34,671 nt of DNA. Origin: a virus. Taxonomy: Duplodnaviria > Caudoviricetes. Below the pieces are notes generated by a model. It searched no databases. It saw only the letters and a list, made by a program, of their open reading frames with translations, and had not been told where the DNA came from. The position numbers were made by a program, and so were the translations under genes. Shown here piece after piece: positions 9,098 through 34,052 of the stretch (position 1 is the stretch's first letter; each line of letters starts with the position of its first letter). The stretch is from IMG/VR virus record IMGVR_UViG_3300046779_000127, positions 1 to 34,671 of that record. One strand, given 5' to 3'.

Positions 9098-11688
9098 TAA
9101 CCTTTCATAGCGGCTGCAATGTCAGGCAGTTGCGACAACAAAAGTGCCTGATTGATTCCACCCAAAGCACCACTGTACGCACCGGCTTGACCAATTTGAC
9201 CAGCGGCTTGAGCCCCGGCTTGCCCAACGTTCAGGTTGGTTTGAGCGTTTGCCAAGTTAGTGCCCAATGTGTTAGCTTGTTGTTGACTTGTCTGACCAAT
9301 TCCAGCAATACCGGCAAGCGTGTTGTAAATGTTGGAGCGTTGCGTTTGGAAGCGGTTGAAAGCATTACCAAACTCTTGACTTGCTTGACCTTGGGTGTAG
9401 TCCTGCAAGCCACGCATGACGTTGCCGCCAAGACCACCACCAGAAACATTACCCAAACGCTGGTTTGCCATCTGACCCTGTTGCAGTCTGAAGGCATAGC
9501 CAGGATCAATCCCTTGCTGGAACATCTCAGGCGTAAATTGTTGGGTCAAATAACCCGTACCCGTTGCCATACCCATAGGATTGCCTTGGGCGTCATATTG
9601 CGTATATTGACCCGGCAACATCCCCTGAATCTGGTTCAAAGCACCGTAACCAGCGCCACGGTATGGGGCTTGTTGCTGGTTCAGCGTGTTGAACATCTGC
9701 AATTGTTGGGCGCGAGAAGCCGCCGCAGCGTCAGCCTGAAGTTGAGCCGCCTTGTTTGAGGCATTTGCGCCAATCAGACCCTGCAAAACACCGGCAGCAC
9801 TAGAACCCAAAGCAGCTTTGCCAAGCGCCGATGTGGGCAACAATCCTTTGAGCAGGGATGCTAGAGCAGTACCGCCAGCAGAAGTGCCACCACCGCCGCC
9901 CGTAATACCGCCAAGACTGCCGCTAGTGCCGCCGCCGCCGCCGCCAGTTGGCGATCCCATCCCAACATCGCCCATAGCATTCAAATCAGCGCCAGCGCCG
10001 AGATTCATGCCGACATCACCCATTGCGTTTATGTCATCTTGGCTAATTTGGTCGTAAATATTCCCGGCAGGATTCCAGCCACCGCCAAAATCAATGTTGT
10101 CAAAACTCGTGTCAACTGCAGCAGGATTCCAACCACCACCAACGTCAATGTTGTCAGGTGATGTATCGCCACCCAAATAGTCTAAGATGTCTGCCATAGA
10201 ATTTCCTTGACCCGATGCGGTGGGTTGATTATCTTGTAAATTAGTGTTGGTAACAACGTCATTCTCGACCTCTTGAGTCTCAGGCGCTTGCGTTTGATTT
10301 ACCTGGCTGTCCAGAATTCCGATGTTTTCTGGCTGTCCTTGGTTGTTCGAGGTAAGCTGGTTTGACCCAATGTTGGCAATGTCAGACAAAGAGTAGTTCT
10401 GGTATGCGTTTCTACCGGCCTGAAGCGCCTGGGAGATAAGGGCGCTAGTCGGGTCTTTACCCGTCATTTCACTAGCAACCAGCGCATTGATGGAGTTCTG
10501 CGCCATTGATGGAAGGCTAGAAAATCCCTCAATTTGGCCTGTAATCATGGGAGCCGCAGCAGATGCGCCCATGCTTGCCAAAGTGGTCAAAGGGTCGTAT
10601 TTTGCGCCTGTTAAGGCAGAAGATGTCGCCCCTTGCGCCAAGGTTCCAGCGGCATTTCCAATCAAATCCCCTGCCGTTTTCATACCGGCTTCTTGGGCAG
10701 CAAGCATTGCAGTTTGCTGAGAAGCTAGGTCGGTTCCGTATTGGGAAGCCGCCGCCGCCTGGTCGCCAAAGATACCGGCTTGCTGACCAACTTGACCTAC
10801 AGCGTAGGACGTTGCAGCAGACTTCAGAATGTCGCCAATGTCTCCACCTGCGGCAGCGGTTTGTGCGCCAGCCAAATATGGCAAGAATTCAGGGGCAAAA
10901 ATTGCCGTGGCAATGGTTGCAACAGGCCCAAGTTTTTCAAATAAAGACTTTTCTCTTTCTTTTGGTTGATAGACGTATTTTGATTGCGTCAAATCTGGCG
11001 CAGATGCTATGCCGGTATTAGGATCAACTTTGACCGTACCCTGCAAAGAACCCTGCGCGTTGGGGCTGTAAACAGAATATTTGTACTCATTGGGGTTGCC
11101 CGTTGGCGTCAAACCAATGGGGGCAGAACCATCGTTGCGGTTTAGCGAATAACTACCGTCAGATTGCGTGAGTCTGTAGGGATAGTTAACATCGCTAAAT
11201 CCACCCAAAAAGCCAAAACCACCCTGACCTTGATACAGTTTGGTCAAAGAGTTTTGAACGGCTTGCTGCGGGGTTGTATCGTAAGCAATGTCATCTAAGG
11301 TGACTTTAGGATACAGCTTTTGAGCTTCTGCTAGTGTTGCCTGTCGGATCGGCAAATATCTGGCCTCACGCTCTGCAATCGCCGCATTAACAGCTTCTTT
11401 GCTTGTTAATGGAGTTGTTGTGTTTAATAAACCGCTAAAAGGTGTTGACTGCGTAACTGGCGCAGGAGTTGGTTCAGGCGTTGGAGTAGGTGCTGGAGCC
11501 GGTGCTGGAGCCACAGGTTGAGCAAGAACCTGGTCACGATTCATCACAGCATTACGATACTGAGCAAATTGCGGTTGGGTGTTAAAAAACCAATCCCAAC
11601 CCATCATGTCAACCATCCATTGGTTGCCAGAATTTAACCAGTCTTGTGCGCCTTGTGCGGCTGATCTTTCTTCTGCTGAATAAGCCAT
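9097..11688 (-). CDS. DNA ejection/pilot protein (P22 gp7-like C-terminal part) with a long N-terminal extension
   Basis: C-terminal ASNKAAQLQADAA...QAPYRGAG...DPGYAFRLQQG...ASQEFGNAFNR pattern; Gly/Ala-rich. Confidence 0.7.
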   Translation of the reverse strand: MAYSAEERSAAQGAQDWLNSGNQWMVDMMGWDWFFNTQPQFAQYRNAVMNRDQVLAQPVAPAPAPAPTPTPEPTPAPVTQSTPFSGLLNTTTPLTSKEAVNAAIAEREARYLPIRQATLAEAQKLYPKVTLDDIAYDTTPQQAVQNSLTKLYQGQGGFGFLGGFSDVNYPYRLTQSDGSYSLNRNDGSAPIGLTPTGNPNEYKYSVYSPNAQGSLQGTVKVDPNTGIASAPDLTQSKYVYQPKEREKSLFEKLGPVATIATAIFAPEFLPYLAGAQTAAAGGDIGDILKSAATSYAVGQVGQQAGIFGDQAAAASQYGTDLASQQTAMLAAQEAGMKTAGDLIGNAAGTLAQGATSSALTGAKYDPLTTLASMGASAAAPMITGQIEGFSSLPSMAQNSINALVASEMTGKDPTSALISQALQAGRNAYQNYSLSDIANIGSNQLTSNNQGQPENIGILDSQVNQTQAPETQEVENDVVTNTNLQDNQPTASGQGNSMADILDYLGGDTSPDNIDVGGGWNPAAVDTSFDNIDFGGGWNPAGNIYDQISQDDINAMGDVGMNLGAGADLNAMGDVGMGSPTGGGGGGTSGSLGGITGGGGGTSAGGTALASLLKGLLPTSALGKAALGSSAAGVLQGLIGANASNKAAQLQADAAAASRAQQLQMFNTLNQQQAPYRGAGYGALNQIQGMLPGQYTQYDAQGNPMGMATGTGYLTQQFTPEMFQQGIDPGYAFRLQQGQMANQRLGNVSGGGLGGNVMRGLQDYTQGQASQEFGNAFNRFQTQRSNIYNTLAGIAGIGQTSQQQANTLGTNLANAQTNLNVGQAGAQAAGQIGQAGAYSGALGGINQALLLSQLPDIAAAMKG

Positions 11689-28599: not shown

Positions 28600-28753
28600 T
28601 TTGCTTCTCCAGTTCAGACATGAACCATTGGCATTGTTGCAGCGCACCATTGATCTGCTGCAATTGCACCTGGGTCTGGTGAGCAGTTTGCTCCAATTCC
28701 TTGCCTTTGGCAATCAAGTCTTGAATACGGGCTTCAATCAGTTCTTTAGTCAT
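28574..28753 (-). CDS. Small coiled-coil protein, 59 aa (MTKELIEARIQDLIAKGKELEQ...), not in ORF track
   Basis: Fills the gap between groES and the 47-aa gene; heptad pattern. Confidence 0.75.
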   Translation of the reverse strand: MTKELIEARIQDLIAKGKELEQTAHQTQVQLQQINGALQQCQWFMSELEKQNAASEVKE

Positions 28754-29006
28754 TTTCTACTACCGCACAAATGTCGGCTTCCTGGATGATTTGATAATCC
28801 TGCCCATTGATGCGCTGGACAGGCCAATTGAGATAATCGCCGTTTCCATACTTGATGAAATCGCCGACCTTGGTTTGATCCACCAATGGCCCAATCGCAA
28901 CCACAGTACCCTCGTTAAAAGGTTCCGTGTTGTTCACATGGATAATTGTGGATAACTCTCTGACTGTGGGTTTTACCACAACGCGATCACGCAGAGGTTT
29001 TAGCAT
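28746..29006 (-). CDS. groES: GroES/Cpn10-like co-chaperonin
   Basis: LKPLRDRVVVKP, GTVVAIGP, KVGD, IIQEADICAVVE; GGAGG RBS. Confidence 0.88.
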   Translation of the reverse strand: MLKPLRDRVVVKPTVRELSTIIHVNNTEPFNEGTVVAIGPLVDQTKVGDFIKYGNGDYLNWPVQRINGQDYQIIQEADICAVVEND

Positions 29007-32600: not shown

Positions 32601-32744
32601 TCAACCTCCAAAAACAATCATGGCAAGCAAGAAACCTGCGGTGAATGCGTAGACATACCGCAAAACCTTTTCAGGCTTACTGGTGGCGTAGCCAACCGTA
32701 TAGGTGGCATCTGCAAAGTTGCGGGGGGTTTGATAGTTCTTCAT
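32601..32744 (-). CDS. Small protein with C-terminal TM helix (47 aa, MKNYQTPRNFADA...), first gene of the leftward operon
   Basis: GGAG RBS before the ATG at 32744; TPR motif followed by a hydrophobic tail. Confidence 0.75.
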   Translation of the reverse strand: MKNYQTPRNFADATYTVGYATSKPEKVLRYVYAFTAGFLLAMIVFGG

Positions 32745-32790
32745 AAGTGCTCCAAAAAATACCGTATGCGTTGCGCTCCGGGATGTGTGT

Positions 32791-32819
32791 AATGTATAGC
32801 AAACTTCACAGATGTGCAA
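32791..32819 (-). promoter_or_regulatory. Leftward early sigma70-type promoter
   Basis: Minus strand TTGCAC-17 nt-TACATT in the divergent intergenic region. Confidence 0.7.
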
Positions 32820-32879
32820 TACCCAAGCAAAAAATAGGGTTATCCGTTGTTTTTTGGTTTAGCCCGCTACACTTTCAAG

Positions 32880-33044
32880 ATGTTAACAAAAGAAAAAGCC
32901 ATCGAACTTGCTGGATCACAAGCCGATCTGGCGCGTCTACTTGGGGTTACCAGGTCGGCTGTTTGGCAATGGAAAGAGATTCCTCAAGGCAGGATTTATC
33001 AGCTAATGGTGCTGCGTCCATCATGGTTTGAGGTTATTCAGTAG
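32880..33044 (+). CDS. Cro-like HTH transcriptional regulator (54 aa)
   Basis: AIELAGSQADLARLLGVTRSAVWQW..IPQGR; first gene right of the divergence; ATG at 32880. Confidence 0.88.
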   Translation: MLTKEKAIELAGSQADLARLLGVTRSAVWQWKEIPQGRIYQLMVLRPSWFEVIQ

Positions 33045-33056: not shown

Positions 33057-33088
33057 ATTTGTTGGTTTTTCACAAAGGAGTTTGAAAC

Positions 33089-33241
33089 ATGAAAAAAGCA
33101 ATCATTGCCGCCTGGTTTGCCCTCTCAGCCACGATGGTTTGGGCGTCTTGTACTACCCACACGATCATGCAGGGAGGCCGCATGGTTACCTGCACAACCT
33201 GTTGCTATCCTGGCGGGAATTGCACTACGTCTTGTTTTTAA
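33089..33241 (+). CDS. Small secreted six-cysteine peptide, 50 aa (MKKAIIAAWFALSATMVWA-SCTTHTIMQGGRMVTCTTCCYPGGNCTTSCF), not in ORF track
   Basis: AAAGGAG RBS, classical Sec signal peptide with V-W-A cleavage site, 6 Cys in the mature part. Confidence 0.85.
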   Translation: MKKAIIAAWFALSATMVWASCTTHTIMQGGRMVTCTTCCYPGGNCTTSCF

Positions 33242-33249
33242 TGTATACT
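33220..33249 (+). promoter_or_regulatory. Putative sigma70 promoter for the structured RNA/replication operon
   Basis: TTGCAC (33220-33225), 18 nt, TATACT (33244-33249); the first hairpin starts about 6 nt downstream. Confidence 0.6.
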
Positions 33250-33290
33250 CAGAACCGTCTGGTGTGGCAATCAGACGATGAAACTAGTAG

Positions 33291-33409
33291 AAACCCCGCA
33301 GGGTACTGTGTGGTCTTGTCGTACAGCATGACGAGTCTTTTGACTAGTTTCAATCGTCTTGTTGTTGCTCTCGCCAAGAGCCAAGACCACAGAGCATCTT
33401 GCGGGGTTT
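33291..33409 (+). ncRNA. C4/P4-CI-like antisense RNA
   Basis: Long closing stem AAACCCCGCAGGG/TCTTGCGGGGTTT plus TGTGGTCTTG/CAAGACCACA enclosing two arms. The unpaired parts of the arms (TAGTTTCAA, CGCCA) are complementary to the upstream leader (TGAAACTA, TGGC). Confidence 0.65.
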
Positions 33410-33421
33410 TTGCTTTTGGCC

Positions 33422-33599
33422 CAGACCGTCAGGGCGCGTTAGCAAATGGTCTGCATGGACTGAACCCAAGAAACACCGGCATTGCGATACACCCCGCAGT
33501 TTGCCGACCAGCGTTGATTGAGCGACTGGTAAAGGATTGGGTACAACGGTGGAACAAGGCCCGATCTATAAGCGAATCAATCCCTCATGGGCACTTGGG
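33422..33599 (+). ncRNA. Candidate multi-stem structured RNA domain
   Basis: CAGACCGT/ATGGTCTG hairpin, then CCCAAG/CTTGGG enclosing four hairpins; several G-U pairs valid only on the + strand. Confidence 0.55.
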
Positions 33600-33689
33600 C
33601 TTTTGTTGAGTTTATAAGGAGCATATATGGAGCATGAATCAAAAGTCGGAGAGGGCAGGATAGTTGATCTATCCACCCTTGGAGAACCT

Positions 33690-34052
33690 ATGTTCAAAAC
33701 AGGATTCGATAGATTCTGGGAAGCCTGGCCTAAGTCCACACGCAAGGGGGCAAAGGCTGAATGCAAGAAAAAATGGGTCAAGAACTATTGCGAGACTTGC
33801 GCTGACCAAATCATCAAACACGTTGAGTGGATGAAAACCACAGACCAATGGCGCAAAAATGAAGGGGCATTCATACCCGCCCCGCTTGTGTACCTCAACC
33901 AACAGCGTTGGGATGGCGCAGAAATCCCCGAAATCAAGCCTACAAGCGCAAAAGACCCGGCGTTGGTCAAACTGGACGAGGACAACAAAAAAGCCGCCCC
34001 TATGCCCGATTCTGTGCGTCAGCGGTTGGCTGAACTGAGAGGCATGAAATGA
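33690..34052 (+). CDS. Replication-initiator C-terminal-like domain protein (alternative upstream start at 33627)
   Basis: FDRFWEAWP...KAECKKKW...FIPAPLVYLNQQRW motif; GGAG RBS at 33681, with AAGGAG also present before 33627. Confidence 0.7.
   Translation: MFKTGFDRFWEAWPKSTRKGAKAECKKKWVKNYCETCADQIIKHVEWMKTTDQWRKNEGAFIPAPLVYLNQQRWDGAEIPEIKPTSAKDPALVKLDEDNKKAAPMPDSVRQRLAELRGMK

Follow-up and report, generated by a model that had tools for sequence, protein, structure and literature searches.

What is the heavily paired stretch of sequence that precedes the replication gene of this phage, and what would it do there? The window (the whole stretch of DNA that was analysed, 34,671 nucleotides) holds a 34.7 kb phage genome, which is apparently circular since a PAPS-reductase-like gene spans both of its ends. 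Its genes include those for portal, coat, terminase, Erf and RecE-like proteins, a cro-like gene (32880–33044) and a 120-aa gene at 33690, and a scan of 50 window ORFs against PHROGs found no repressor, integrase, helicase, primase or polymerase. The early operons diverge at 32744–32880; they include a cro-like gene, a repressor gene is lacking between them, and an integrase was not seen. The phage encodes a GroES-like co-chaperonin on the minus strand (28746–29006; Pfam Cpn10, E 2.8e-8). A first-pass annotation had proposed that a novel structured non-coding RNA with kissing loops, under selection on the plus strand, lies at 33422–33680. The features that define the locus are as follows.

33244 to 33249, + strand: TATACT, from its sequence the likely −10 hexamer of the cassette's own promoter
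33256 to 33417, + strand: c4/P4-CI-like leader ending in a terminator-like stem and U-run; long inverted repeat I1, fold of −81 kcal/mol
33426 to 33692, + strand: the whole element, here called module A, with 203 homologues; scaffold (33426–33601), linker and 3' start-region domain (33644–33692)
33690 to 34052, + strand: stand-alone C-terminal domain of a phage replication initiator, without the N-terminal DNA-binding domain (PHROG 9474/270)

All the helices named in the first-pass annotation can be drawn where it had placed them, including the three G-U pairs of 33534–33567. The region does not fold better than shuffled sequence, an outcome that the first-pass annotation had named as counting against it: z was −1.42, and −1.46 for 33422–33680, with a median of +0.12 for the core in 37 homologues. 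The case for an RNA therefore rests on homologues, whose covariation outweighs the z-score because minimum free energy folding cannot model a pseudoknotted RNA. Loci were gathered by way of the rep protein, by DNA patterns in IMG/VR and the JGI metagenomes, and from GTDB. Our profile matched 268 of 325 sequences (13 of the 268 incomplete), and 252 complete parses reduced to 200 distinct sequences; adding the atypical loci L001, L296 and L298 gave 203 distinct homologues of module A, found in freshwater podophage contigs. Alignment A1 comprises 73 representatives with ∼52–100% identity to the window. We estimate that there are roughly 250–300 matching stretches in IMG/VR and ∼250 in the JGI metagenomes. 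GTDB contained three matches, all on 4–9 kb MAG contigs with three unrelated labels, and a search for a host link matched 1 of 151 family genomes, that one being the MAG itself. A pattern scan for variants with a base other than G after GGTG gave none. A weak covariance-model match at window positions 10200–10375 (E 0.005) lies inside a coding gene and was taken as chance. Eight RNA runs provided contigs only, possibly containing DNA, and the joints seen in them were relatives with divergent middles.

Over the 73 representatives the structure as first drawn was 76.2% paired: P4, P5 and P6 held (97–100%) and two helices failed. Both ACCAG/CTGGT (98.9% paired) and GGATTGGGT/GCCCGATCT (97.1% paired, with both sides changed in eight of nine pairs) are conserved and covary, the CCT/GGG hairpin is 100% paired across the 73, and the TTGCG/CGCAG hairpin is kept with a stem of at least 4 bp in 70. 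The 5' hairpin CAGACCGT/ATGGTCTG (51% paired) and the closing stem CCCAAG/CTTGGG (69% paired, with no mutual-information support) are not conserved, and P2, P2b and P7 take their place. The fold revised from mutual information and pair counts in A1 has 47 pairs, 97.7% of cells paired and 25 pairs changed on both sides; none of 500 shuffles scored as high and slid controls were 26–44% paired. Absent from the earlier drawing were the pseudoknot 33516–33521/33577–33582, P7, and the docking of loop L5 on 33673–33681 (98.6% and 96.9% paired). A further closing helix, CCG/UGG, that would join both ends was rejected, having no mutual-information support. The scaffold and its closing helix consist of the following elements.

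33432 to 33467, + strand: P2 (33432–33434/33465–33467) around P2b (33448–33452/33457–33461, loop GCAU/GAAU), by covariation
33477 to 33506, + strand: P3/P3b hairpin, whose loop L3 (33487–33494, with CACC at 33490–33493) is the cis competitor for L5, by structure-anchored count
33507 to 33530, + strand: P4, with invariant CAG-CG/CG-A-CUG and bulged A33525; its loop (33516–33521) forms PK1; 96.7% paired
33534 to 33567, + strand: P5, whose loop L5 carries the guide segments GGUGG(A) (33548–33553) and CAAG (33555–33558), by covariation
33577 to 33582, + strand: 3' strand of pseudoknot PK1, partner 33516–33521; 96.3% paired, five of six pairs changed on both sides
33583 to 33591, + strand: P6, a short hairpin; 100% paired, GC/CG exchanged seven times on the tree
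33594 to 33651, + strand: P7 (CUUGG-GCU 33594–33601/AGU-CGGAG 33644–33651), closing the variable linker; mutual information, 97.7% paired

These helices are maintained by very different sequences. P2 has at least 3 bp in 72 of 73 representatives (anchored count) and occurs as GGG/CCC, CCA/TGG, ACT/AGT and CCT/AGG, and the inner P3 hairpin occurs as 22 different stems. P2b is 100% paired, with 12 independent joint changes at 33449–33460, and P4 shows 17 at 33508–33529; P7 is also present in the minimum free energy fold of the window. When the tree was built with the tested columns removed, joint changes on both sides numbered 7–27 for each scaffold pair, ∼6–8 for CWAG/CUWG and 3–4 for GGUGG/CCACC, counts that may be inflated by recombination among these phages. 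Outside the helices, 41 positions are at least 90% conserved, which suggests a bound protein or small molecule. On this comparative evidence module A is a real conserved RNA of ∼270 bases, larger than first noted, and covariation thus supports the proposal of a structured plus-strand RNA under selection; its novelty is in keeping with Rfam, which had no match at E ≤ 1 in the window.

We found no codon-like conservation: no frame is open over the core in 30 of 73 representatives and spacing modulo 3 is distributed 30/21/22. Coding by ORF 33082–33609 was rejected as an explanation, even though 28 of 73 keep this frame open through the core. The linker closed by P7 varies (CTTGG to CCACC, 36–89 nt). 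In the window phage it contains a Shine–Dalgarno (SD) sequence (33616–33621) and an in-frame AUG (33627); such an SD and AUG occur inside the linker in 24 of 73 representatives, 19 of which stay in frame without a stop. A conserved leader peptide, absent in 49 of 73, was rejected.

The clue to function lies in loop L5, which has two partners. The first is L3: the proposed kiss between CACC (33490–33493) and GGTG (33548–33551) is kept as an exact complement of at least 4 bp in 71 of 73 representatives, the remaining two L3/L5 kisses pairing by wobble or in a shifted register (by eye). The second lies in the start region, the features of which are listed here.

33652 to 33679, + strand: P8, a local hairpin that conceals the docking site (at least three of the five CCACC bases in 72 of 73); median −10.7 kcal/mol
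33672 to 33681, + strand: docking site UCCACC-CUUG for L5, at −18 to −9 from the AUG; 5–7 bp with L5 in 73 of 73
33688 to 33692, + strand: near-invariant CU-AUG, likely a gated start codon, at a fixed distance from CCACC

Docking forms two helices, GGUGG/CCACC (33548–33552/33673–33677) and CAAG/CUUG (33555–33558/33678–33681). The L3 and docking-site partners of L5 are mutually exclusive, and all three alternative pairings are kept in 71–73 of 73 representatives. In L296 three sites have changed together (L3 CTCC, L5 GGAGG, target CCTCC), and L080, L145 and L263 carry compensatory GGTGA/TCACC. Pairing of L3 with the freed arm of P8 is possible but weak (median −4.6 kcal/mol; −4 or lower in 44 of 72). 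P8 of A does not include the SD or the AUG, and docking covers −17 to −9, including the first G of GGAG; the computed median opening cost falls on docking from 12.2 to 4.4 kcal/mol, partly by construction since the calculation took docked bases to be open. A small G81–C88 loop-out (by eye) sets CU-AUG directly against the docked helix. That GGUGG has a second, stronger partner beside a start codon points to control of translation initiation, and on the same comparative grounds the element through P8 and the start codon is one unit.

The start codon itself is strongly conserved. Among the 203 homologues the codon 17 nt from CCACC is ATG in 188, TTG in 11, and GTG, ACG and ATT in one each, with one further GTG at 16 nt; a single base separates each variant from AUG. 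The next long ORF shares the frame of this codon in 25 of 51 junction clusters, the rate for pseudo-starts being 12 of 102, and in the L088 and L241 clusters the conserved codon is the sole start of a long HNH-like gene without an SD. A usable SD is missing from 23 of 43 distinct 3' segments, and CU-AUG/U is kept even where it starts only an ORF of 2–12 codons without an SD. Of 74 distinct rep junctions, 28 have a conserved codon that is out of frame or has no SD; rep has its own SD and ATG in all 28, so that the conserved codon is often not the start of the gene. Stops of such mini-ORFs are only mildly enriched near the next start (17 of 51 versus 30 of 102).

A distant subfamily, E, indicates which of these properties are conserved. 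It consists of eight loci, of which five distinct types were used, and a second scan for it gave no new contig. The covariance model built from A detects all five types tested (E 1.8e-6 to 0.04). Subfamily E retains the scaffold, PK1 (CCGTA/TACGG and TCACA/TGTGA) and a terminal CUAUG/CUAUU. Here it is L3 that pairs, over 7–9 bp and with covariation, with a G-rich GGGGUYRUC-like segment at −11 to −3: in L562 the pairing is GACAACCCC/GGGGTTGTC, L571 has one extra C and G, and L574 has an L3 loop identical to that of L561, in which the pairing is 9/9. L5, as CYGAC, pairs with GUCRG near −23 and also covaries. Both targets lie inside a long local hairpin of −23 to −32 kcal/mol that, undocked, encloses the SD together with all or most of CUAUG. 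Again CU-AUG abuts the docked helix, and docked L3 covers the SD position itself. Since E applies different guides to the same region, the conserved function is loop docking just before CU-AUG, the guide sequences being free to change. That L5 is a displaced SD-like segment pairing with 16S rRNA was rejected as a family trait: the A variants are all SD-like, but E uses CYGAC.

Module A forms part of a cassette whose parts recombine. A −10-like hexamer occurs in the matching upstream zone of 47 of 61 homologues, against 1 of 61 in a control zone, although a consensus promoter scan found none in the window. Immediately before the element, 69 of 72 homologues have a GC stem with a U-run. At least three unrelated leader types, with hypervariable complementary specificity segments, precede module A, and leaders and downstream modules recombine at ∼33420, the leader shuffling independently of module A. 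A trigger by the upstream c4-like RNA was rejected, the longest complement being 7.46 nt for cognate and 7.41 nt for non-cognate pairs (n=72). Behind one leader type, 115 of 115 loci hold a large module (A 25, B 73, other 17). The element had been placed directly before the replication ORF, which is common but not obligatory: rep is directly downstream in 125 of the 164 homologues in which it is detectable, further downstream in 27 and upstream in 12, and was not seen in the other 39 of the 203. Other genes next to A are methylase-like, HNH-like or genes that follow the terminase, and are mutually unrelated.

The same slot holds other RNAs. Module B (L051:1765–2003 and 35 other rep loci; L340, L348) is an unrelated structured RNA of ∼240 nt with a direct repeat (after GGCUCC and after the 3' CACC), the copies of which change together in at least six variants and have no RNA complement; this repeat needs a DNA-template, antisense or copying explanation. 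Modules C (L377, L384, L390, L442, L454) and F (L460) are large and structured-looking. Module D (L401, L415, L429) has an A-like 5' domain, long G-runs and an int-alpA RNA motif (RF02996, 37 bits in L415) right before the ribosome-binding site. Rfam had no match over the A, B, C, E or F regions in 16 + 8 loci, nor for modules C and F over L377, L442 and L460. In L105 (876–1223) three tRNA genes lie between the terminase and the promoter–leader–module A cassette, and in L121 (1243–1299), L152 and L182 a short terminated RNA resembling Betaproteobacteria toxic sRNA (32 bits, below the gathering score) lies upstream of the cassette.

In the reading that we favour, and to which we give an even chance, module A would be a cis-acting two-state translation switch at CU-AUG with docking as its ON state. 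Covariation across the homologues shows a rigid scaffold, the dual complementarity of L5, the enclosure of CCACC in P8 and CWAG/CUWG pairing; the order of folding and the polarity of the switch we infer. Transcription from the cassette's own promoter would have to read through the c4-like terminator. The first fold, with L3 kissing L5 and P8 closed, would be OFF. Strand exchange would then dock L5 on −17 to −9 and unzip P8, leaving CU-AUG single-stranded beside the docked helix, and L3 may take up the freed P8 arm. The output would be ribosome loading at CU-AUG, which would start the next gene directly or else a mini-ORF, from which the ribosome is handed on or which determines polarity. An upstream ribosome could act as trigger only in the third of homologues that have a linker start.

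Such a switch would resemble a known plasmid mechanism. In ColIb-P9 repZ the sequence GGCG of one loop forms a helix with CGCC, which directly precedes the SD, and competition comes from the Inc loop through kissing (PMC4705826). Module A shares with ColIb-P9 repZ and IncB repA (PMC4705826, PMC8383071, PMC10286972) a G-rich loop that pairs at long range with a C-rich 4–5-mer 5' of the SD, itself otherwise held in an inhibitory hairpin, and a competing second loop of the same C-rich sequence, which acts by kissing; the arrangement often precedes a replication initiator gene. The differences are that the competitor loop L3 acts in cis, whereas theirs is a trans antisense RNA; that module A has no conserved leader peptide whose translation or stop opens the hairpin; that it has a 175-nt pseudoknotted scaffold and a second guide segment; and that its SD is dispensable and its downstream gene variable. 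The inhibitory hairpin of the plasmids masks the distal pseudoknot strand, the SD and the start codon; P8 masks the docking site, the SD and AUG lying outside it in A, and in E the SD and most of CUAUG are masked. The overall order of promoter, structured RNA with terminator and readthrough isoform is shared with P1/P7 c4, and with P4 CI/seqA and Gifsy-1 IsrK (PMC4825925). At the Gifsy-1 isrK locus a terminator-readthrough isoform is activated for translation (PMC4825925). Translation of the readthrough isoforms in these systems needs a structural switch, often via a mini-ORF. Unlike them, module A offers no cognate target to the upstream RNA, folds separately and recombines freely with several upstream types. 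A search of full-text literature found no description of the module A RNA. The motif strings are absent from the readable supplements of PMC10690425, and a fragment of 29–151 nt may be among the 8,495 IMG/VR candidates of that study. Taken together, our analysis points to module A as a real and new RNA family, most likely working like the known plasmid switch and not a member of it.

Subfamily E poses a difficulty for this switch. Because its SD position is paired in both states, 'docked is ON' fits it poorly unless initiation is SD-independent. In a possible though doubtful alternative the scaffold, as one of at least five interchangeable large RNA modules at the head of gene blocks in freshwater phages, would replace SD pairing, clamping the start region with its guide loops and presenting the AUG without an SD as a natural bacterial IRES-like element, or cutting beside it to give a leaderless message.

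In another reading, unlikely in our judgement, module A would be a self-processing ribozyme, its loops being substrate guides that place CU-AUG in a catalytic core, so that cleavage would turn the message on irreversibly and leave it leaderless or with a defined 5' end. Comparable in size are the lariat-capping (GIR1) and group II ribozymes, in which guide loops likewise capture a 3' segment in cis, close before an ORF. Two guide segments on adjacent target segments, CU-AUG abutting the docked helix in both subfamilies, the 41 conserved non-helical positions and the retention of CU-AUG/U without an SD, even for tiny ORFs, would all suit such an RNA. Against it, no variant has an Rfam ribozyme match and none of the catalytic signatures of GIR1 or group II was found in module A; inspection by eye showed neither a group I G-site pattern nor group II domain V spacing nor a conserved bulged branch A. 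The contigs of the RNA runs, which cannot show ends, gave no informative joint or RNA end. Group I introns have a P7 guanosine site with a G-C pair and a P3–P7 pseudoknot; in module A the bulged A33525 precedes a C-G pair, not G-C. Group II introns have a domain V triad 5 bp from a 2-nt bulge and a bulged branch A in domain VI; in A1, inspected by eye, AGC lies opposite a 1-nt bulge, and A33675 is paired in several lineages, including the L012 and L034 types.

The polarity could also be the reverse, a ligand or protein stabilizing docking so that the scaffold occludes the ribosome-binding site, but we consider a riboswitch-like OFF switch of this kind rather improbable. Kissing-loop and pseudoknot translational riboswitches such as those for cobalamin combine a conserved core with loop docking on the ribosome-binding region. 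Module A shares with riboswitches conserved, aptamer-like core nucleotides and alternative pairings over the start region; docking covers −17 to −9 in A and, in E, the SD position entirely, and P8 of A contains neither the SD nor the AUG. It differs in having no Rfam match, unrelated downstream genes and a built-in decoy loop. The downstream genes (initiator, methylase-like, HNH-like and those after the terminase) share no pathway or ligand-related function. Moreover, P8, with its opening cost, abuts the ribosome footprint, and the undocked hairpin of E makes the undocked state look closed too.

Still less probable is a scaffold that acts on transcription or in trans, whether by processive antitermination, as a 5' stabilizer after processing from the c4-like RNA, or as an intermolecular L3–L5 multimer, with pairing to the start region incidental. 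The cassette is independent of position and gene, has its own promoter and, behind one leader type, always holds a large module, all of which such a scaffold would accommodate, but in two subfamilies that differ in sequence, covariation couples the loops of the scaffold with the start region.

The remaining explanation, raised in the first-pass annotation, concerns the neighbouring gene. The PHROG 9474/270 match of the 120-aa product covers the C-terminal part of the initiator only. This stand-alone domain has 571 relatives in IMG/VR and 27 longer relatives, several with DUF1376 or HTH_36 domains; with the full-length protein P0002 as query, the best 80 matches were short initiators only. Its predicted structure (pLDDT 80) had no Foldseek match (best VIA Z 4.8). 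Phages with the short initiator would have to recognise an origin by means other than that DNA-binding domain or iterons. Module A (44) or module B (36), never both, is present at each of the 80 loci of the short initiator, and the element sits where full-length initiators encode the DNA-binding domain. Full-length initiators in four named phages leave no space immediately upstream for such an RNA, and in-gene tandem repeats are present in three of these; repeats lie within the initiator genes of IME-AB2, CP2 and phiPSA1, and none were found in the window. The lack of room and the in-gene repeats had suggested an RNA origin. That the RNA replaces the origin-binding domain of the initiator, at first supported, is contradicted as a rule by G003, G004 and G008, in which A lies kilobases from a full-length initiator followed by a helicase-like gene (identity by eye in G003 and G008), and in G001 it follows the terminase. 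Primers of the ColE1 type are made where an upstream RNA copy pairs with the template strand, at a direct repeat with no RNA partner; in A the repeat does have an RNA partner, L5, and it is module B that shows a covarying, partnerless repeat. A primer or origin-opening RNA that forms an R-loop with DNA at 33673–33681, the truncated initiator loading a host helicase in a phage for which no helicase, primase or polymerase was seen among the ORFs scanned, is thus the least probable reading and very improbable, since the element also occurs far from replication genes in phages with an initiator and helicase-like gene of their own, every covariation in A is satisfied within the RNA, and the conservation and frame bias of the start codon are left unexplained.

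Few conserved RNAs with pseudoknots are as large and complex as this one, and ribozymes and riboswitches are among those known. The natural compensatory variants of module A, including those with SD-less starts, specify mutate-and-rescue designs. If the scaffold does replace SD pairing, it would be a natural element for SD-independent initiation or a new class of large ribozyme. If the switch reading is true, phages that seemingly have no repressor would gate their early genes by a self-contained RNA version of the repZ switch.
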